The position numbers and the translations under genes were made by a program. Below the pieces are notes generated by a model. The model was given only the letters and a program-made list of their open reading frames with translations. It had not been told where the DNA came from and did no database searches. A DNA stretch of 64,000 bases from an uncultured bacterium. Its GTDB lineage: Bacteria; Patescibacteriota; Saccharimonadia; Saccharimonadales; 2-12-FULL-41-12. Of the stretch, positions 48,667 to 60,426 are shown one piece after another. Location: positions 199,572 to 263,571 of the forward strand of contig CAWIAU010000001.1 in NCBI GenBank assembly GCA_963834265.1. Reading direction: 5' to 3'. Positions within the stretch are counted from its first letter, which is position 1. Each line of letters begins with the position of its first letter.

Positions 48667-49464
48667 ATGAAAACACTAAAATTTGACCATACAGTAGCGC
48701 AGGAAATATTAGCCGGCAAAAAAACAGCCACATGGCGTATGTACGACGACAAGGACTTATCTGTGAATGACGAGGTCAAAATAATTGATAAAGTTGATCC
48801 TGACTCTTCGGATTCATGGCAAATTATTGGCGAAGCCAGGATAACTCAAATTACCGAGAAAAATCTGGGAGATGTCACTCCGGCTGACATGAAGGGTCAC
48901 GAGGAGTTTCGCTCCCGCGCGGAAATGATGCAAACCTACAAAAATTATTATGGCGAACGCGTAGACTTCGATACTCCGGTCAGGATGATTTACTTTAAGT
49001 TTACCCCGTCAAGCGGTGAAAGAGCCTCAGAGGCTATGCTTCTGGAAGAGGCCAAAATTTATACTGACGGCGGCTCGCGTGGCAACCCCGGACACTCGGC
49101 TTGCGGGTATGCCATCTGTAATATGGATGATAGTGTTGTCGAAAAAGCAGGCGTTTACATCGGTATTGCCACCAATAATCAGGCAGAATATAATGGCTTC
49201 GTCCGTGCACTGGAGCGGGCTCAGGATCTGGGTATAGACAGGATTATGCTCTTTTCTGACAGTCAGCTGGTCGTCAATCAGATGAAAGGCCTCTACAAGG
49301 TCAAAAATCAGGAGCTCGCCCCTCTGCATCAGCAAGTCGTTGAGCTTAGCAGATCATTCAAAGAAATAAGCTTCACTCATATCCCGCGTGAGCTCAACAA
49401 GATTGCCGATGCAATGGTCAACGAAACGCTCGATGCCCGTGAGCAGGGCAGGCATAGCCAGTAA
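48667..49464 (+). CDS. ASCH domain - RNase H (type 1) fusion protein
   Basis: The N-terminal roughly 110 aa is ASCH-like (ILAGKKTATWRMYDD). The C-terminus has RNase HI catalytic blocks (IYTDGGSRGNPG, NNQAEY, LFSDSQLVVNQM, NKIADAMVN). Confidence 0.75.
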   Translation: MKTLKFDHTVAQEILAGKKTATWRMYDDKDLSVNDEVKIIDKVDPDSSDSWQIIGEARITQITEKNLGDVTPADMKGHEEFRSRAEMMQTYKNYYGERVDFDTPVRMIYFKFTPSSGERASEAMLLEEAKIYTDGGSRGNPGHSACGYAICNMDDSVVEKAGVYIGIATNNQAEYNGFVRALERAQDLGIDRIMLFSDSQLVVNQMKGLYKVKNQELAPLHQQVVELSRSFKEISFTHIPRELNKIADAMVNETLDAREQGRHSQ

Positions 49465-49468
49465 TAAA

Positions 49469-49811
49469 AGCCAGACTATCTATAAGCCGGGTTTTGTAAT
49501 CGTTGATCATCTATCTAGTCCCGACATTGCTATCAGGATCAAGCGGTTCTTATGAAGTATAATCGGCGGGAACCTATGTGAATATACTTCTCCTTGCAGC
49601 AGACAGGGTTTACCTCCTGACTACGTCACCATAATCAGCTGTGAGCTCTTGCCTCACTCTTTTCACCATCTCCTCCCGAAAGAGGAAGTATTGTTTCTGT
49701 GGCACTTTCCCTGGGGTTACCCCCGGTTGCCGTTAGCAACTGTCTCTCCCTATGCTGCCCGGACTTTCCTCCCCCGACGAGTCGGGGGTGATCAACCGAT
49801 AATCTGGCTAA
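49469..49811 (-). ncRNA. rnpB: RNase P RNA, bacterial type A
   Basis: The minus strand reads AGCCAGAUUAUC (P1)...CCCCCGACUCGUCGGGGG (P3) GAGGAAAGUCCGGGC (P4 5')...GUGCCACAGAAA...ACAAAACCCGGCUUAU (P4 3')...GAUAGUCUGGCU (P1 3'). The ends are approximate. Confidence 0.92.
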
Positions 49812-51110: not shown

Positions 51111-52622
51111 TTAGAGGACTAAGGGCTTTTTGCGGTACTGCAGAGCTTCGCTGATCTGGGCAATGCCCACTGATTCCTGACCGTCTACATCTGCAATTGT
51201 GCGGGCAACTTTCAGAGCTTTCATATAGCTTCTGGCTGACAGCTGCATTTGTTCGGCTGCATGATTGAGCATCTCTTCAGCTGCATCTGATAACAGCGCA
51301 AATAGCTTGAGTTCCTTATTATTCAGTTCGCTATTCAGTTTGCCTTCTCCCCGATCACGTTGCATACCCCGGGCGGCCAGTACTTTATCGGCAAGCCGCT
51401 CGCTCTCACCAATAAGGTTTGAATTCTTAAGCAGACGATTATGCGCGACTCCTTCTACTTCCACATACAGGTCGATACGGTCAATAACCGGTCCCGAGAT
51501 TTTCTTTTGATATCTTACGATTTCATGAGGCAAACAGTTGCAGGCCTGAGCTGTCCCGTAGTAGCCGCATGGACAGGGATTAGCTGTAGCCACCAGCATG
51601 AAGTTAGCGGGAAAGTCGACTGTGTCCCTGGCGCGGGCGACGGTAATCATTTTATCTTCCAGAGGCTGCCGAAGAGCTTCTATGACACTTCGCGCGAATT
51701 CCGGGAATTCATCAAAAAACAATATGCCATGGTGACTCAGGCTGATCTCGCCGGGTCGCGGGTTCTGGCCGCCGCCTATTATAGATATATTGCTGGAGCT
51801 ATGATGGGGGGTGCGAACTGGTCGGTTTTGTACAATTTTATCGAATTGCTTGCTGGCCAGACTATGCAGGTGGGTGACTTCCAGCATTTCTTCCCGCGAC
51901 AAGCAGGGCATAATGCCTGACAAAGCTTTCGCCAGCATACTTTTGCCGGTGCCGGGGGGTCCGTTTAGCATGATGTTATGATGGCCGGCAGCGGCAATCA
52001 ACAGGGCGCGCTTGGCGCTCTCCTGACCAACAACATCCTCAAATGATATCAACGGAGCTTCTCTCTTCTTATGTGGTGATGGTGATTCGCCAATCTCCCT
52101 GGAGTTGATACTTTCCGGTGTATTAAGCGCTTCGTACAAACTTCTTAGGCTGTTGACAGGGAAGACCTTTATACCTGGTATCAGACTGGCCTGAGGCAGA
52201 TTGGCCTCCGGTAACCAGAATTCGGTAATTCCAAGTTCGCGTCCTGTCAATATTTTGCCTATGATTCCCCGTACAGCCCGTACTGAGCCATCCAGGCCTA
52301 CTTCACCCATTACAGCGATATTCGGAGTTATAGAGGTAGTAATGAGATTGCCTGCCTGCATGATTGCTATTATCATCGGAAGATCGAAGCTTGTACCTTC
52401 TTTAGGAATATCTGCCGGGGCAAGGTTCAAGGTGATTCGTTTTTTTGGCAGCTGGATATTACTGCTGGAAAAAGCGCTGCGAATTCGTTCCTTAGCTTCA
52501 TCGACAGCTTTATTGGCAATACCTACAATTATAATATTAGGCAGAGAATTTGACAGATGGCACTCCACTTCCACAAGCAAGCCACTACCACCGCTTTCCA
52601 GTATTGTTTTTATACCTGCCAT
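51111..52622 (-). CDS. comM: Mg-chelatase-like AAA+ protein ComM/YifB
   Basis: 503 aa with an N-terminal Lon-protease-like domain, Walker A (GPPGTGKS), Walker B (ILFFDEF) and a C-terminal ChlI-like domain. Confidence 0.92.
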   Translation of the reverse strand: MAGIKTILESGGSGLLVEVECHLSNSLPNIIIVGIANKAVDEAKERIRSAFSSSNIQLPKKRITLNLAPADIPKEGTSFDLPMIIAIMQAGNLITTSITPNIAVMGEVGLDGSVRAVRGIIGKILTGRELGITEFWLPEANLPQASLIPGIKVFPVNSLRSLYEALNTPESINSREIGESPSPHKKREAPLISFEDVVGQESAKRALLIAAAGHHNIMLNGPPGTGKSMLAKALSGIMPCLSREEMLEVTHLHSLASKQFDKIVQNRPVRTPHHSSSNISIIGGGQNPRPGEISLSHHGILFFDEFPEFARSVIEALRQPLEDKMITVARARDTVDFPANFMLVATANPCPCGYYGTAQACNCLPHEIVRYQKKISGPVIDRIDLYVEVEGVAHNRLLKNSNLIGESERLADKVLAARGMQRDRGEGKLNSELNNKELKLFALLSDAAEEMLNHAAEQMQLSARSYMKALKVARTIADVDGQESVGIAQISEALQYRKKPLVL

Positions 52623-52833
52623 TCTTGTTTCTAAGTATAGCGGACTTACGCTAAATCACTCAGCACCGGATCAAATCTGAACAGTTACAAATTCCCACCT
52701 TCTAACGATGTAGCTATGGTTACTTCTCATTCAGCTGAAAAGTTTTCACTAGCATGATTTTAACTCTGAATCTTAAGTTATTTTGCATATAGTCCGGTTA
52801 ATTAGTATCAGGATTAATCAGGCATAAATTAAA

Positions 52834-52859
52834 AGACCCTGCTTGTGTAAGCAGGGTCT
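52834..52859. terminator. strong hairpin with U-runs on both strands
   Basis: 11-bp stem AGACCCTGCTT / AAGCAGGGTCT with a GTGT loop. The minus-strand reading is followed by TTTTAATTT and the plus-strand reading by GATGTTTTTGT. No annotated gene ends here. Confidence 0.55.
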
Positions 52860-54420
52860 GATGTTTTTGTGTTGGGCGGGGATTTGGATTTTCTTTTTTA
52901 TAATACGTCTGCTGGGTTTTTTGGAACAACGGCTTGCGAGAAGCCGTTGTTACTAGAGACGTTTTTGTTTTTGAGCACTTTTTTTATTCAAGTGCTGTGC
53001 ATATCTTATAAAGAGTTGTTAACAGTGTCAATACGTTTCTGCTTTAAAGCTGTGCATAAGTTTTTTATCAAGAATGCTTATCTACGAAATTTAAAGAATA
53101 CGCACATAATTCGGGTACATTTTTTATAAATATTAAGAAAAACAAAGATTTTTAGCCCGGTCGTATTGTACTGAGTTTAACTATTATCGAAGCCCCCACA
53201 TGCAACATAATAATCGTATATATTGCAAATTCAGCGCCACTATTGCATTTTAGCTGCCTGAGTAAATTCTGAGCAGGGAAATTTGATATACAACGTATAT
53301 AGATTACTAACAGTAAAGATCGCTGGTATACGTAAAATGTAAGAGTATTAGAATACCAGTTCCGGATTTGCATACCGATCATCAGTTATTCTTAAACAGA
53401 AGCAAACGCGTATACTACTAACTAGTAGTATACGGCTAGTTACGAATCAAAATGCTTCGGCGATGTTATCAGCTCAATTTCATGAACTTTGTGTCTCCGC
53501 ATGAATATTGAGCCAAAAAACATCACATACAGATATTTTGTCGGAAGATTTAATCGATATTTTTGACACGTCACACGTCCGGGTACAATAAGCAGATATC
53601 GTAATCGGTAAATAAAAATTATAAAATAAAAAGACCGGCCGCAATAATATGCTTATTGTGCAGCTCAAGCAAATAAAGGTTTATTTACTGCATGTGTCAG
53701 TTTCTGTTCAGAATATTTCGTTCACAACGCGCCTGAAATATGTAAAATATCATCACGGAAAAATAGGTTTATATATAACTCTATTTTTATGGCTATAAAA
53801 CCGATTGTCAATTTAGTAATGGTATCAGCTGTTGAAATCTATACATATAAATACTCGTAATGGTTCCGGAATTAATTAACAAGCCTGAGTTTCAGATTTA
53901 ACCAGCTTTACATCTAAGGTCGAAAATCTACTGATTCTTTTCCATCGGAACTTTATATCTTGCATTCTGAATCAATAAAACTGGTGCCAGGTAAACGATT
54001 ATGAAATTAGTTCAGACATTGTGTTGTCAAAATAGCTACTTAACTATAACATCTGTATATCTGATGTATTGTTATAAAAACAACCTAAAGATATTGACAA
54101 AAACACTTCTTTGTACTAAGATGGAACATGTAAACGTATACAAAATAAAAACGTCTGCAAAATTTAACGCTCTTGTTCTTGCGAATAGCAGAACAGAGCG
54201 GTCAGTCAAAGCCTTCAGGGCGATAAGCGCTAAATAGTAATAATTTACAGAGCGGTTTTATCGTCCGGGGCTCCTTTTTATTTCTGAAAATAATAGTTTG
54301 ATGTATGGTTAAATCAGTAAGGCAGCTACCGGATTTATCACGGTTTTCGATGAGCAGAAGCAAATGATCTGTCAGCGGGTATTTTTTTATCGGCACATAC
54401 AGATTACACTATGGAGAAGT

Positions 54421-54765
54421 ATGATCAGAGTTAAGAAATACCGCCATTTATTACACGCTTTGACAGGCATTTTTGCTCTGCTTATTTTTTTAATCACTAC
54501 TACTCCGGAGCAAATAGCACTCGGATTTTTGGTGATTCCGATTCTGGTAATTGTATTTATAACTTATGAACTGGTACGTTTCGGAATCTCGGTTTTCTCA
54601 AATAAGAAAGAGACCAAAAAACAGCAGGCTGTTAGTGCTATAACAGCAATTGCAACCGGACTTCTGCTTATGCTTCAATCAATCGGCCAGCTGTCAGCCG
54701 GTGATCTGGCTATTGTAGTATTTTTTGTTTTGATCTCAGTTTTTTATATTAATCGATTTCGATAA
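54421..54765 (+). CDS. small polytopic membrane protein
   Basis: GGAG lies 5 nt upstream of the ATG at 54421, so I prefer it to the track start at 54364. 114 aa with three hydrophobic helices. Confidence 0.6.
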   Translation: MIRVKKYRHLLHALTGIFALLIFLITTTPEQIALGFLVIPILVIVFITYELVRFGISVFSNKKETKKQQAVSAITAIATGLLLMLQSIGQLSAGDLAIVVFFVLISVFYINRFR

Positions 54766-54825: not shown

Positions 54826-55131
54826 ATGGACTCGTCTCAAACACCTGCCAATTTTTCTCAGGGCAGCTCTCCTAAGCTACCTGCACAATCTTCGAACCAT
54901 TCCTCTGATGAAGAAACACCAGCTGCTGGTATTCAGGCTTATTCGGGTACGCAGGTGCCGGATGATGCAAGTGATGCTGATCTGATAGAAAAGGAGTGGG
55001 TTATAAAGGCTAAAGACATAGTGGATCACACGCAGGATAACCCGCATGCTCAGCAAAAGGCGATTAGTAAATTCAAGGCTGATTATATGAAGAAGCGCTA
55101 CAATAAAGACATTAAGACAGAGGGAGTCTAG
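54826..55131 (+). CDS. hypothetical soluble protein
   Basis: 101 aa with a low-complexity N-terminus and a helical C-terminus. Immediately precedes the ATPase gene. Confidence 0.5.
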   Translation: MDSSQTPANFSQGSSPKLPAQSSNHSSDEETPAAGIQAYSGTQVPDDASDADLIEKEWVIKAKDIVDHTQDNPHAQQKAISKFKADYMKKRYNKDIKTEGV

Positions 55132-55151: not shown

Positions 55152-58100
55152 ATGGACGTGTTTGTAGCTTTGGTTTTCGGCTTACTCTTCGTAGCTGCAA
55201 TTGCGGGTCCGGTGATTTTTCTGCATACCCGCCGTATACTCCGTGAGCAGAAAGATTTCGAGCGTGGTCTCAAGATGGTTCCGTTACTTATACATCTGCC
55301 ACCACCAAGCGATGATACAGATGTCGGCCAAAGAGATGTGCGTGATGTAACAGATGAGAATATAAGCAAAGCCCAGATACTCTATAGCATTATCGCCAGT
55401 ACTATGCAGAAAAGCTTCAAAAGTAAATTTTATGGTCAGCGGCATATATCTCTCGAAATTGTCAGTGCCAAAGGAGTGATTGATTTCTATGCCGGAGTGC
55501 CTATATCCTTGGTTGAAGTCGTAAAACAAGCGGTTTTCAGCGCATATCCCTCAGCCCGACTGGAGGAGGTGGCTGAACACAATATTTTTAGCGATGTGGG
55601 AGGTATCAGCAGCACATTCGGAGGTGAGCTGACTCTCAAAGAAAGCTATGCCTACCCGATAGCCACCTATCAGGATATAAAAAGAGACCCGATAAACTCC
55701 ATCCTGAACTCCTTGTCCACGCTCGAAAAAGAAGACGGGGCCGGCATTCAGCTCCTTATCCGGCCCGCAGATAGCGGCTGGCGCAAAAAATCATCGGAAC
55801 TTGCTTCCAGGAAGAGGGGCGGTAAAGATAAGGCAAAGGGCCATGAACAGCTTTTTTCCTGGACGACAGATCTGTTCGGAGCACTGAACAAGCCTCCGGA
55901 AGAAAAAGGCGGTAGTAGCGGTTCCGAGAAGACACTATCAAGTATGGAAGAGGCCACTCTTAATGCCATAGACGAGAAGACCAGGCATCCGGGATTTGAA
56001 ACGACAATCCGGATCATCGCTTCTTCGAACGTTGCCCAGCGCTCCCAGAGTGTTCTAAACAACATCGTACATAGCTTCGCGTTGTTTGATGCGCCCGGCA
56101 AAAACGGATTCAAGTTTACGCCGGCTCAGGACATAGAACAGTTCACGACTGCGTATATTCTGAGGTTCTTTCCGGCCGGCCACAAAAAAAATATTCTGAA
56201 CGCTATCGAGCTGGCCAGTCTTTACCACTTCCCGCAGGAAGATAACATACCTACAGCTCAACTAAGCCGACAGGATTCCAAACAAGTGGACGGACCACGA
56301 AATATGCCGGAAGAAGGCCTTCTGTTCGGATATAATATTTTTCGCGGAACCAAGAAACCGATCCGGCTGGCTCTGCAGGACCGTCAACGTCATATATATG
56401 CCGTAGGACAGACCGGAACCGGTAAATCAACGTTTCTGGAGAATCTGGCTCTGCAGGACATGATATCGGGCGGGGGATTCGCTTTTATTGATCCTCACGG
56501 CGATACTGCCGAAGCTCTCTTATCAATGGTGCCGAAAGAAAGAACCGAAGACGTGATCTATTTTTGTCCGGCCGAAACTGATTACCCGCTGGGTCTGAAT
56601 GTGTTCGAAGCGCAATCTGATGACCAGAAAGATTTTGTCATACAAGAAGTAATTAATGTTCTGTACAAACTGTACGATCCGCAGCGCCAGGGGATTATCG
56701 GTCCCCGTTATGAGCACTTGTTCCGCAACGCCGCGCTAACTGTTATGTCTGGTCCCGAGGGAGGAAGCTTTATTGATATACCGAAGCTCTTTACGGATGA
56801 CGACTATGTTGCACAGAAGCTCAAATATGTGACTGACCAGAACGTATTGGACTTTTGGCAGAAGGAAATGCAACGGGCCAAAAAATCTAATGAGTTCGGT
56901 GATGTTGTCAGCTGGTTTGTCAGTAAGTTCGGTGCCTTCCTGTCCAACAGCATGATGCGAAATATCATCGGCCAGATTCACAGTTCATTTGATTTGCGCG
57001 AGATTATGGACAATAAGAAAATCCTGCTCGTGAATCTGAGTAAGGGCCGTACAGGGGACATGAACTCCAAGTTGCTCGGCATGATCTTCGTGATGAGATT
57101 CCAGGCTGCTGCTATGTCGAGAGCTAATATACCCGAGAGTGAGCGTCAGGATTTCTGTCTGTATGTGGATGAGTTCCAGAACTTTTCTACTGATTCTTTT
57201 GCCACAATCATGTCAGAAGCCCGGAAATATCACCTGAACCTGGTGGTGGCGAACCAGTTCACTACGCAACTTACCGAGGAAATTCGTGATGCGGTATTCG
57301 GAAACATGGGTACAATTGTTTCGTTCCGTATCGGCCAGAACGACGTAGACGCTCTGGCGCGCTATTTCCAGCCTACTTTTGATGGGGATGACCTTGTACG
57401 CATTCCAAACCACAACGCCATTGTACGCACTCTCGTGAGTGGCGTACCGACCCAATCGTTCAGTATGGCTACTATTCCGCCGCTCGGTACACCCAATCAG
57501 GAGCTCGGCGATGCATTGAAGCAGCTTTCCGCCGCAAAATACGGTCGTCCGCGGCAGGTAGTAGAAAAAGAAATCTTTGCCCGCCTCAAAACTAATGATC
57601 CTCCGGCCAGGCCTGCTATTCCTCAGTCATTATCTGGCAGCGGAGGAACAAGAGGATTCGGTGGTACTGCCGGACAGCCTCCGGCTTTTGGATCAGGTCC
57701 CGCATCGGCCGCACCTGCACCCAACAGCTCAGCGTCATTTCTGGATCAGTGGCTGGATAAAAGGCAGAAAAAGTCGCCCGTATTGTCTGCTTATCCTCCG
57801 GCTACCAGCAGACCGGCTCCGGCATTTAGTTCCGGTAGTCCGGCTGCAACTCCGCAATTTCAGCCGGCCGCATCTCCCGCGCAGAAGCCTTTAGCTGCAC
57901 CGGAGCCTGCTCAGACTCCTGATTATTCACAGATAAGCTCCTCTCCGAGCCAGGGAGAACCTGAGCAAACGGCCACTACGCAAGCTGTGCCGGACACATC
58001 GGGAAGCACCGTGCAACACGATACGCCGGTGTCAGCTCCAAAACATCACGGTGTGAAGCACAAAACCAGTCAGTCTCATCCGGCAGGTGAACTCAAAATA

Positions 58101-58205
58101 ACCCGTGAATTTCATAAAGATCAATCACACCCGCAGGAAGACGCTATACGTATTCACCGTGGTAAACATTCTGTGCCCGATTCTGAACAACCAGCAGATA
58201 AGTAA
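55152..58205 (+). CDS. TraD/TraG/VirD4-like (type IV coupling protein-like) P-loop ATPase with a long Pro/Ala/Ser-rich tail
   Basis: N-terminal TM helix, Walker A (GQTGTGKST), Walker B (LYVDEFQNF) and an ARKYHLNLVVANQ block, as in conjugative coupling ATPases. The last roughly 250 aa are low-complexity. Confidence 0.65.
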   Translation: MDVFVALVFGLLFVAAIAGPVIFLHTRRILREQKDFERGLKMVPLLIHLPPPSDDTDVGQRDVRDVTDENISKAQILYSIIASTMQKSFKSKFYGQRHISLEIVSAKGVIDFYAGVPISLVEVVKQAVFSAYPSARLEEVAEHNIFSDVGGISSTFGGELTLKESYAYPIATYQDIKRDPINSILNSLSTLEKEDGAGIQLLIRPADSGWRKKSSELASRKRGGKDKAKGHEQLFSWTTDLFGALNKPPEEKGGSSGSEKTLSSMEEATLNAIDEKTRHPGFETTIRIIASSNVAQRSQSVLNNIVHSFALFDAPGKNGFKFTPAQDIEQFTTAYILRFFPAGHKKNILNAIELASLYHFPQEDNIPTAQLSRQDSKQVDGPRNMPEEGLLFGYNIFRGTKKPIRLALQDRQRHIYAVGQTGTGKSTFLENLALQDMISGGGFAFIDPHGDTAEALLSMVPKERTEDVIYFCPAETDYPLGLNVFEAQSDDQKDFVIQEVINVLYKLYDPQRQGIIGPRYEHLFRNAALTVMSGPEGGSFIDIPKLFTDDDYVAQKLKYVTDQNVLDFWQKEMQRAKKSNEFGDVVSWFVSKFGAFLSNSMMRNIIGQIHSSFDLREIMDNKKILLVNLSKGRTGDMNSKLLGMIFVMRFQAAAMSRANIPESERQDFCLYVDEFQNFSTDSFATIMSEARKYHLNLVVANQFTTQLTEEIRDAVFGNMGTIVSFRIGQNDVDALARYFQPTFDGDDLVRIPNHNAIVRTLVSGVPTQSFSMATIPPLGTPNQELGDALKQLSAAKYGRPRQVVEKEIFARLKTNDPPARPAIPQSLSGSGGTRGFGGTAGQPPAFGSGPASAAPAPNSSASFLDQWLDKRQKKSPVLSAYPPATSRPAPAFSSGSPAATPQFQPAASPAQKPLAAPEPAQTPDYSQISSSPSQGEPEQTATTQAVPDTSGSTVQHDTPVSAPKHHGVKHKTSQSHPAGELKITREFHKDQSHPQEDAIRIHRGKHSVPDSEQPADK

Positions 58206-58762: not shown

Positions 58763-60426
58763 TTATACTCCCGCCGATGTATAATCTTTTTTGACTAATG
58801 TTAACTCTTTGGCGAGTAGCCGGCTTCGGGCAAAGAAGTAACTACTGAGAACCGTCATAGTGAATATTGCTGCTACTGACGTACCGGGGCCTGTATTCGG
58901 TAACTGCTCTATGGTTTTGATGACAGCACAGTCAACCGGTATTGCTACTTCGTCGCCATAAATGTTCTGTATTTTACAGTCAAAATCAGGGGCGGTTTTA
59001 TTTGGCTGATTTGTCGTTGGTAACGGATTTTTCATGACCACTCGGAAAGTTCTCTTAAGTTCTCCGCCAGGAGCAATTTCCTGAACGGACCAGGTAATAG
59101 TTTTTCTATCAGTCAGGTAGGTACCTTTCTGGCTTGTCAAAAATGCGGTGTCTAGATCAGCGTAATCCAACAAATCCCCAATATAGTCCTCGACAGAATA
59201 ATCGATCTTTGAAGATTTATTCGTATTAGTAGTAGTCAGTGTGTACTCGATTATGTCGCCAGCTTTTGCTTGTGTCCGAGGAGTTTGCTCGCTGGTGAGA
59301 TTTTGCGTAATATTTCTAGCTGATTTTTGAAAGCCCGGTGGAGTGACAGGGGGAGGCGGTGGAGGAGGAGATGGAACACTATCAACCGTAATCTGCTTAA
59401 TACAGGCAGGTGTTGATGCTGTATTACCTTTGTTAGTTTTTACTGTCAGGCTGACAGTATAGGTACCGGGCTTTTCCTGATTCAGGACATAGGTATTGGC
59501 GGTACTGTCCTGAGCACTTACTCCGTTTACCGAGAATATGTATCCGGTAATTTGTACATTCTGAACTTTACCCTGTCCGGTGAATTTAAAGCTGGTACGA
59601 CTTATTTTCTCTACATTCAGAGAATCACAGGAATAACTTTGTGGTGGAGGCGGCGGTGGAGGCGGTGGAGGCGGTGGAGGTGGAGGTGGAGGTGGCGGTG
59701 GAGGTGGCGGCGGTGGAGGTGGAGGTGGTGGCGGAGGTGGAGGTGGCGGCGGTGGAGGTGGGGAGGTGGAGGTGGAGGTGGAGGTGGAGGTGGAGGTGGA
59801 GGTGGAGGTGGAGGTGGAGGTGGAGGTGGAGGTGGAGGTGGAGGTGGCTCAGGGGGTGCGGGTGCATGCCTATAGGCAATATTGCCACAATCTTTCAGAA
59901 CCCAGATGTAATACCATTGGCCATCACTGCCCTGACGTTTACCAAAAAAGTATGCAGCATCCCCGCCCGACCATTCTCCGGCGCTCCGGCTATACATTGT
60001 AGTGCCTGCATATGGACCCATAGGAGCATCGGCGCCTGGACTTTTTTGTCTGCCGATGGTTCTGGTACCCTCAGCACCCTGAGTAGGAAAATTAAAGGTA
60101 GTATTCTGAACCGAATAGCCTGGTATTGACTCGCAGTTCAAACCAAACCGTGCATAGAGAGCTCGCGTGTCTGCCCGGGCACCGCATTTTGTTGAGAGGT
60201 CTCCAATAGAACTTACGCCTCCGTATATAACATCGTTATTCGATGCCGCCAGAGATTTTTCCGGCGGCACCATAGCGGCGAATGTCTGTACAAAAAGGCT
60301 TAGTATTACGAATACGAGTCCGATTCGCCGGACTGATTTTTCCTGGTTGAGTCGCCTCGCATAGAATGAAACATCATCGATCATGCTGGGATTAAAAGGC
60401 AGATTCGCGAGTAATTTATTTATCAT
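58763..60426 (-). pseudogene. LPXTG-anchored surface protein with a polyproline stalk, interrupted by a frame change
   Basis: The N-terminal ORF (60426-59761, signal anchor plus globular domain) reads Pro codons until 59761, then falls into HLHL nonsense. A second frame is open with no start codon from 59848 to the stop at 58763. It encodes about 40 more Pro, Ig-like segments and LPNTG, then a TM helix and a basic tail. The frames differ by one nucleotide at GGTGGGGAGG (59758-59767). Confidence 0.75.
59764..59847. repeat. perfect hexanucleotide tandem repeat (AGGTGG)x14, coding-strand (CCACCT)x14
   Basis: 14 uninterrupted units counted by hand. It is flanked 3' in the coding sense by a degenerate 120-nt CCN tract (59642-59761). 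Confidence 0.9.

Follow-up and report, generated by a model that had tools for sequence, protein, structure and literature searches.

The window analysed here is a stretch of 64,000 nucleotides from an uncultured bacterium of the Saccharimonadales, and its largest gene-free gap (positions 52623-54363, hereafter termed the island) separates comM from a group of genes that includes one for a TraD-like ATPase. The island is probably a composite of two divergent small RNA genes, termed RNA A and RNA B, and a non-conserved spacer between them, with both RNAs being stand-alone and their function inferred. Judged from sequence comparison, both are apparently undescribed small structured RNA genes that are present in essentially every related genome sampled. 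The two RNA families are well supported as new, while the class to which they would belong, the bacterial small RNAs, is already known. A conserved, putatively divergent promoter region with a DnaA-box-like site appears to separate the two genes, and both probably give rise to abundant stand-alone small RNAs. No description of RNA A or RNA B was found in the full-text literature searched, and the main genetics paper on Saccharibacteria does not mention non-coding RNAs (ncRNAs).

With 1741 nt, a measurement that disregards a spurious ORF (open reading frame) of 86 amino acids (aa), the island is far longer than the median gap (77 nt) and the second largest gap (520 nt) of the window. Its GC content is 0.346, compared with 0.473 for the whole window and 0.401 for the remaining gaps pooled, and none of its ORFs exceeds 86 aa, so that the first-pass annotation was right in describing a large, ORF-poor gap that is more AT-rich than its surroundings. 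When the eight ORFs of the island were compared with Pfam at E<=1, no match was found except for one at chance level. The hairpins listed in that annotation are present as well, namely an 11-bp terminator-type hairpin (52834-52859) that is terminator-like on both strands, two further hairpins (52925-52951, and AGCACTT/AAGTGCT near 52975) and a perfect palindrome with 12-bp arms (53409-53434). Perfect inverted repeats with arms of at least 11 nt occur three times in the island, while any such repeat at all was seen in only 2 of 300 shuffles. The case is different for the -35/-10-like pairs, since TTGACA-N17-TAAGAT is indeed found at 54094-54122, but the overall number of promoter-like sites in the island (10 against 9.5 expected) is not above chance; two of these sites appear to matter, solely through their conservation in other genomes. 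Of the explanations put forward in the first-pass annotation, that of one or more unannotated ncRNAs has held, with the hairpins between 52834 and 52996 being part of one conserved minus-strand RNA and the promoter at 54094-54122 preceding a second RNA on the plus strand.

The evidence for the two genes comes from a comparison set of 80 genome contigs (loci), which were recruited via the ComM protein and are nearly all labelled Saccharibacteria or Saccharimonadales. Block A (~52912-53070) gave a blastn match in 77 of the 80 loci, with 85-93% nucleotide identity over ~90 nt, and block B (~54165-54282) in 51 loci, with 72-86% identity. Both are far more conserved than the flanking comM product (51111-52622, minus strand), which shares 52-66% identity with the proteins of the 80 loci. 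Block A is constantly located ~165 nt upstream of comM, while the distance between the centres of A and B ranges from 273 to 1302 nt among the loci. With covariance models, neither A nor B was found more than once in a locus, and the two were divergent and next to comM in every case: model R2, for RNA A, scores the window copy with 104 bits (52912-53000, minus strand) and has a single match in each of 79 of the 80 loci, and model R1, for RNA B, scores the window copy with 98 bits (54164-54278, plus strand) and has a single match in each of 74. In the six loci that are devoid of an RNA B match, the stretch available upstream of comM is short or absent (202-1223 nt). No second copy of either RNA was detected within the window with filters off. 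The sequence patterns GAGCGGTCAGTCA...AAGCGCT and CTCAAAAACAAAAA...TTCTCGCA can serve as substitutes for the two covariance models. In a metagenome sample, a scan with the RNA B core pattern returned at least 120 stretches, and of the 80 loci taken further 79 were confirmed to hold RNA B, with RNA A adjacent to it in 57, on the opposite strand; a large number of these contigs span no more than 1-3 kb, and at least four of the RNA A matches are cut by a contig end. Neither RNA was found on the viral contigs searched.

RNA A is composed of the following elements:

52826-52997, minus strand: RNA A, ~172 nt, counted from the inferred start and including the terminator U-tract (covariance model, fold, promoter and terminator)
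53003-53031, minus strand: promoter of RNA A, TTGACA-N17-TAAGAT, conserved across genomes
52974-52996, minus strand: hairpin 1 at the 5' end, AGCACUU, loop GAAUAAAAA, AAGUGCU, with arms at 52974-52980 and 52990-52996 (alignment)
52961-52973, minus strand: invariant single-stranded motif CAAAAACAAAAAC (alignment columns)
52925-52951, minus strand: hairpin 2, an 11-bp stem with arms AACAACGGCTT and AAGCCGTTGTT and the invariant loop CUCGC (inverted repeat, covariation)
52860-52924, minus strand: unstructured, G-poor and CA-rich tail (106 tails compared)
52825-52859, minus strand: intrinsic terminator, an 11-bp stem at 52834-52859 with UUUUAAUUU (terminator scan)

In the alignment of RNA A, 99.7% of the cells are paired and ten pairs show compensatory changes. 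There are 90 G-U cells but no A-C cells, which indicates that selection acts on the minus-strand RNA. Hairpin 1 is paired in 100% of the cells, with three pairs changed on both sides and G-U variants on the minus strand, and hairpin 2 in 99.5%, with compensatory changes in 7 of its 11 pairs; the fold of the window copy has a z-score of -8.8. The promoter is similarly constrained, as TGTCAA and the -10 region show little or no variation among 25 genomes. At no more than one mismatch, the single-stranded motif CAAAAACAAAAAC has five matches in the window compared with 1.6 expected, three of which lie within RNA A or RNA B. The tail that follows hairpin 2 has a median length of 56 nt among the 106 tails (range 33-86) and consists of 53% A, 24% C, 6.6% G and 16% U. 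Short A/C-rich repeats recur in it: of 101 distinct tails, 65 contain AAAACC (22.5 in shuffles) and 27 contain CCAAAAC (5.5 in shuffles). Of 137 RNA A copies, 106 have a terminator after the tail under strict criteria. In 19 of 101 distinct copies (e.g. L081, L083, L090, L097, L119, L001 and L002) the loop of this terminator repeats the [C/U/A]UCGC motif of hairpin 2, so that the loop is displayed twice, which is not the case for the terminator of the window itself. The possibility that RNA A codes for a small peptide was considered and rejected, since an ATG after hairpin 2 is seen in some loci, but is absent from the window and from others.

The corresponding elements of RNA B are:

54094-54122, plus strand: promoter of RNA B, TTGACA-N17-TAAGAT, conserved in position
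54129-54287, plus strand: RNA B, ~160 nt (covariance model, fold)
54142-54152, plus strand: loop motif of P0, the 5' hairpin
54168-54172 and 54196-54200, plus strand: P1 (CGCUC/GAGCG, invariant), which encloses P2
between the arms of P1, plus strand: P2, a variable hairpin
54200-54209, plus strand: invariant junction GGUCAGUCAA
54210-54215 and 54267-54272, plus strand: P3
54218-54226 and 54258-54266, plus strand: P4
54228-54231 and 54251-54254, plus strand: P5
from 54275, plus strand: U-run

For RNA B the pairing is nearly as complete (97.8% of the cells), and compensatory changes were found in 15 pairs and 278 cells. This level of covariation was reached in none of 500 shuffles, and in slid controls the paired fraction drops to 31-49%. 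P3, which lies outside the model, nevertheless forms at least 4 bp in 71 of 73 sequences and does so with 36 different stem sequences; its mean length is 4.52 bp, compared with 3.69 +/- 0.09 bp for mismatched partners. As in RNA A, G-U cells (138) far outnumber A-C cells (7), and the fold z-score is -4.8. The apical loop is AU-rich and variable, with a length of 18-27 nt. Upstream of P1, a promoter of the form TTGAC[A/T]-N16-18-TAnnnT is present in 62 of 73 loci at a distance of 60-155 nt (mostly 60-100). The loop of the 5' hairpin shows AAAA[C/U]AAAAA in 52 of 73 loci, flanked by a stem of at least 4 bp in 78 of 110 copies, and this A-rich motif is common to RNA A and RNA B. A separate terminator was identified in 70 of 140 copies, and in a further 18, including that of the window, a U-run comes straight after P3.

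As is characteristic of stand-alone small RNAs, both genes lie outside coding sequence and have their own promoter, of the sigma-70 type, and intrinsic terminator, and both have a structure that is conserved with compensatory changes on one strand. Several points weigh against the interpretation of RNA A and RNA B as stand-alone RNAs. Transcription is deduced only from promoters, terminators and strand-specific covariation, and the function that is ascribed to either RNA is likewise a deduction. About a third of the RNA B copies have no terminator under strict criteria. The RNAs are known only from Saccharibacteria-type loci, so that any housekeeping role is speculative, and a rapidly evolving transcript that is particular to the species could still be present in the spacer. 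Finally, both RNAs are placed directly upstream of genes on the same strand, comM in the case of RNA A, and the gene for a 101-aa protein (p101) together with that for the TraD-like ATPase in the case of RNA B.

This last point would also suit a function in cis, with RNA A and RNA B acting as 5' leaders (attenuator, riboswitch-like or antitermination) that govern read-through into comM and into the operon of p101 and the TraD-like ATPase. As both downstream genes encode DNA-handling ATPases, the uptake or transfer of DNA would then be controlled at this region. The immediate upstream position is seen in every locus, the succession of promoter, structured domain, terminator and gene is the classic layout of a riboswitch or attenuator, and the junction nucleotides of RNA B are invariant within covarying helices, as in an aptamer. 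However, both the sequence of the terminators and their distance from the conserved domain vary (median 56 nt and range 33-86 for RNA A, median 20 nt for RNA B), no conserved antiterminator pairing was noticed in the alignments, in which no systematic search for one was made, and no known riboswitch family in Rfam matches. Moreover, a variable gene (p133) is inserted between RNA B and p101 in six loci, and in most of the loci displayed comM has, by eye, a -10-like box of its own, 12-20 nt before its start and beyond the terminator of RNA A, so that RNA A has the appearance of an independent transcription unit. A leader function appears less likely than the stand-alone reading, which is followed below, but is a serious rival to it. 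The -10-like box of comM is TATACT or similar (52623-52660 in the window, with equivalents in L001, L002, L004, L007 and L024), and with a start only 12-20 nt further on, the comM mRNA would be nearly leaderless. An element CTTATGC/GCATAA was also seen by eye to recur around the promoters of comM, RNA A and RNA B in several loci.

Between the two RNA genes lies DNA of a different kind:

53060-54093, no strand: lineage-specific, AT-rich and non-conserved spacer, ~1 kb
53409-53434: perfect palindrome with 12-bp arms within the spacer (inverted-repeat scan)

The spacer has no nucleotide or six-frame similarity to the 80 loci beyond chance-level matches (relaxed blastn and tblastn), nor does it match the metagenome loci, the rest of the window, phages or Pfam, and the palindrome has no exact match in the metagenome contigs. 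In other genomes the equivalent slot measures 50-1080 nt and is occupied by as little as 50-80 nt, by 400-890 nt of ORF-free, AT-rich DNA, or by unrelated genes. The slot is variable and differs in every lineage; genes may have been gained and lost repeatedly at this site, which is bracketed by near-identical RNA genes, and the spacer of the window is most likely relaxed or decaying DNA. Among the genes found in the slot are one with a weak, sub-threshold DHH-like match, one for an alpha/beta hydrolase and one for an unknown 181-aa protein (L001:8764-9684, L042:8871-9632 and L022:9066-9611, respectively), all of which point in the same direction as RNA B. On the minus strand of the spacer, the palindrome (53434->53409) is terminator-like and lies ~350 nt downstream of a promoter-like site, TTGACA-N17-AAAAAT (53811->53783); together the two could possibly define a species-specific transcript.

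That the spacer is AT-rich and matches nothing, and that the same slot elsewhere carries unrelated genes, as gene gain and loss would produce, might suggest that the entire island is junk, decayed cargo from an integrated element or the debris of pseudogenes, with the hairpins as leftovers. This is very unlikely, since the two ends of the island are among the most conserved sequences of the neighbourhood and decay of the island as a whole is refuted by how well RNA A and RNA B are conserved; furthermore, the neighbouring ATPase cluster belongs to the syntenic core, and there are no flanking direct repeats, no integrase and no translated remnants. The junction or decay of an integrated element, as proposed in the first-pass annotation, can accordingly be retained only in part, as the ATPase cluster is a syntenic part of the core genome and only the middle ~1 kb behaves as a variable or decaying slot. 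Gene remnants, for which the first-pass annotation had suggested a translated search, did not appear, with six-frame tblastn against the 80 loci giving chance-level matches only. Pseudogene debris in the spacer was rejected on the same results, together with blastn and with Pfam at E<=1, which returned nothing. An origin of the spacer from a phage or a repeat was discarded as well, since it matches no phage and is not repeated elsewhere in the window or in the loci. An integrated mobile element was likewise rejected, as the flanking cluster belongs to the syntenic core genome, no integrase domain was detected in the proteins on either side and there are no long direct repeats.

The region upstream of RNA A contains one further conserved site:

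53051-53059, minus strand: DnaA-box-like site TTATGCACA, ~20 nt upstream of the -35 element of the RNA A promoter

Read on the comM strand, the site is TTAT[A/G]CACA, and its sole variable base corresponds to the N of the DnaA-box consensus TTATNCACA. Of the 73 loci with a match to this consensus, nearly all have it ~70 nt upstream of RNA A, with one site per locus there, while the 64-kb window contains three matches against 2.3 expected, one of them in the island. A consensus DnaA box that is conserved beside a promoter is what a DnaA-regulated promoter would be predicted to have, and the putative box between the two promoters suggests that expression of the RNAs is coupled to DnaA. The island is extremely improbable as the origin of chromosome replication or as a replication element of another kind under DnaA control: it is AT-rich, non-coding, close to gyrB, endowed with a perfectly conserved consensus DnaA box and flanked by divergent promoters, as is oriC of E. 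coli, but the DnaA box is single in each locus, with neither a cluster nor an enrichment in the window, the cumulative GC skew climbs from 0 to 2.0 over the whole window with no inflection at 52-54 kb, the genes on either side are mostly on the plus strand with no switch in strand bias, and the AT-rich spacer is reduced to 50-80 nt in several genomes. Of the regulatory or replication-related region put forward initially, the regulatory half is consistent with the two conserved divergent promoters and the single DnaA-box-like site, while the lack of a box cluster and of a skew switch argues against the replicative half.

With regard to mechanism, RNA A would act through its unstructured, A/C-rich repeats and titrate an RNA-binding protein, in the manner of CrcZ or CsrB, or it might instead pair with G/U-rich targets through a C/A-rich seed. 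RNA B would serve as a protein- or ligand-binding scaffold, in which the invariant junction nucleotides are held by covarying helices, and could represent a new class of ligand- or protein-binding RNA. Since the A-rich motif is shared by RNA A and RNA B, a common partner may be suggested, and an input from DnaA would be provided through the conserved TTATNCACA between the promoters. A more far-reaching interpretation can be offered only tentatively, namely that the RNAs are undescribed, Saccharibacteria-specific and universal families, arranged as a divergent pair under DnaA-box control, which act either as core regulators or ribonucleoprotein parts of DNA uptake and processing or as housekeeping stand-ins that annotation has missed. 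Their position between comM and the TraD/VirD4/CedD-like translocase genes of a naturally competent, nucleotide-scavenging epibiont would, equally tentatively, belong to the same interpretation. In a Saccharibacteria genome announcement only two ncRNAs were annotated by the pipeline of NCBI (PMC8830319), and some expected RNAs may therefore go undetected in the phylum.

Occurrence as a single copy at a fixed place, with a sequence far more conserved than those of the adjacent protein genes, indicates that the RNAs likely matter to the cell. Saccharibacteria and other bacteria of the candidate phyla radiation have tiny and tightly packed genomes, and their RNA biology is almost unstudied. The two RNAs would be cheap to test, as cultured, naturally transformable strains as well as transposon-insertion data exist (Southlakia, BioProject PRJNA957798, PMC10633639). 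The analysis also corrects a tempting misreading, in that a big AT-rich gap beside a TraD-like gene is no scar of a mobile element here.

The surroundings of the island include two landmarks on its left side:

51111-52622, minus strand: comM, left neighbour of the island
49467-49807: RNase P RNA gene (rnpB), in the upstream neighbourhood (Rfam match)

On this side the order is an RNase H-like gene, the RNase P RNA gene, infC, comM and the island, and on the right side a gene for a 133-aa membrane protein is followed by p101, a 1017-aa ATPase (p1017), three small genes and gyrB. The comparison of synteny from comM to gyrB, which had been recommended in the first-pass annotation, revealed that the order rnpB-infC-comM-[A]-[B]-p101-p1017-...-gyrB is identical in all 17 loci listed, and the recurrence of the order around the ATPase in these loci identifies the neighbourhood as core genome and not a mobile element. 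The p1017 ATPase (55152-58205, plus strand, with 54826-55131) has a distant likeness to TraD, VirD4 and CedD and weak HerA-like matches; it shows 60-79% identity in the 17 listed loci and is matched in 71 of the 80 loci, compared with 65 for p101 and 57 for gyrB. The p1017 gene is a conserved core gene of Saccharibacteria that lies outside any conjugative element here, and it may belong to a machine for DNA uptake or transfer. comM is always close by and is less well conserved than p1017. The ORF of the 133-aa membrane protein (54364-54765, plus strand), which comes directly after RNA B, is matched by a homologue in just 6 of the 80 loci, and its true start may be the ATG at 54421, six bases upstream of which there is a GGAG. 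On the far side of comM, a 265-aa protein (48667-49464, plus strand) that adjoins the RNase P RNA gene combines an ASCH domain with an RNase H-like domain and is matched in 62 of the 80 loci. Further away, the segment 59400-60000 has a GC content of 0.54-0.60 and a GC skew of ~+0.47 and covers the start of a 269-aa ORF (59617-60426, minus strand) and the sequence just beyond, which suggests a compositionally biased, probably low-complexity coding segment. A 16S rRNA gene is located ~9-10 kb upstream of comM in L046 (1-640) and L065 (1-782), and many assembled contigs stop 12-17 kb upstream of comM, probably as a result of assembly breaks at the rRNA operon.

Comparison with known RNA classes was carried out at several levels. 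At the gathering thresholds of Rfam 15 the window yields RNase P RNA and tRNAs only, all of them outside the island, and at E<=10 a search of 52500-54500 and of a compact locus (L079:9380-10000) gave only chance-level matches far below threshold. The Rfam scan that the first-pass annotation had proposed thus returned no known family in the island even at this permissive setting, and in six related loci nothing was found in the corresponding region either. Among individual classes, transfer-messenger RNA (tmRNA) was rejected, including an insertion-split version that was prompted by the two blocks with variable spacing, since the blocks are on opposite strands and ARAGORN found none in the window or in 16 related loci; with only 6.6% G, the tail of RNA A cannot encode an alanine-rich tag. 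Signal recognition particle (SRP, 4.5S) RNA has no match at E<=10, and although GGUCAG...AAGCGC resembles its domain IV, the covarying P3 and P4 pair these bases otherwise. For 6S RNA there is no match to RF00013, and RNA A and RNA B are both series of local hairpins and not a rod with a central bubble. A NusB/NusE boxA antitermination element was considered for UGCUCAAAAACAA of RNA A, which resembles the boxA of rrn operons. The 16S leaders of L046 and L065 do not contain the motif, and because the rRNA leader of the same lineage is devoid of this A-rich motif, a boxA-like role is not supported.

In terms of organization, several known systems share features with the island. Variable gene slots occur at tRNA- or tmRNA-associated islands, and two conserved RNA genes bracket a variable slot (50-1080 nt) here as well. 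By contrast, no integrase, att-like direct repeats or mobile-element genes were found in the slots examined, and it is possible, as an inference only, that, the lineage being naturally competent, their content is exchanged via homologous recombination at the conserved flanks. Like riboswitch and attenuator leaders, RNA A and RNA B each have a structured RNA right after the start, followed by an intrinsic terminator and a gene on the same strand. The put antitermination RNAs of phage HK022 lie behind divergent promoters, and the arrangement of RNA A and RNA B is similarly divergent. Unlike in leaders and put, however, a conserved antiterminator pairing was not noticed and the linker between domain and terminator is variable, comM appears to have its own promoter, and RNA A and RNA B are unrelated save for the A-rich motif.

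The housekeeping RNAs are closer in their distribution, as RNA A and RNA B resemble 6S RNA, the 4.5S RNA of the SRP and tmRNA in being class-wide, single-copy and near-invariant, with a length of ~160-175 nt and a promoter and terminator of their own. They differ from tmRNA in having neither a tRNA-like domain nor a tag reading frame, from SRP RNA in the absence of the helix-8 fold, and from 6S RNA in that neither forms a rod with a central bubble. A further parallel is provided by RNAs that sequester proteins. CrcZ and CrcY carry A-rich AAnAAnAA motifs that bind Hfq/Crc, while CsrB and RsmZ sequester their protein via GGA motifs. RNA A has no sequence homology to these RNAs, its motifs are A/C-rich instead of GGA, and it contains two invariant hairpins that are absent from CrcZ and CsrB. 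Nevertheless, like CrcZ and CsrB, RNA A is predicted to be a short, independent transcript that has a strong promoter and ends at a terminator, and it carries several single-stranded motif copies, with CAAAAACAAAAAC corresponding to (AAN)4 and the tail adding AAAACC and CCAAAAC repeats. Multiple copies of a short single-stranded motif are the hallmark of a protein-sequestering small RNA, and by its sequence RNA A would be a candidate for such an RNA.

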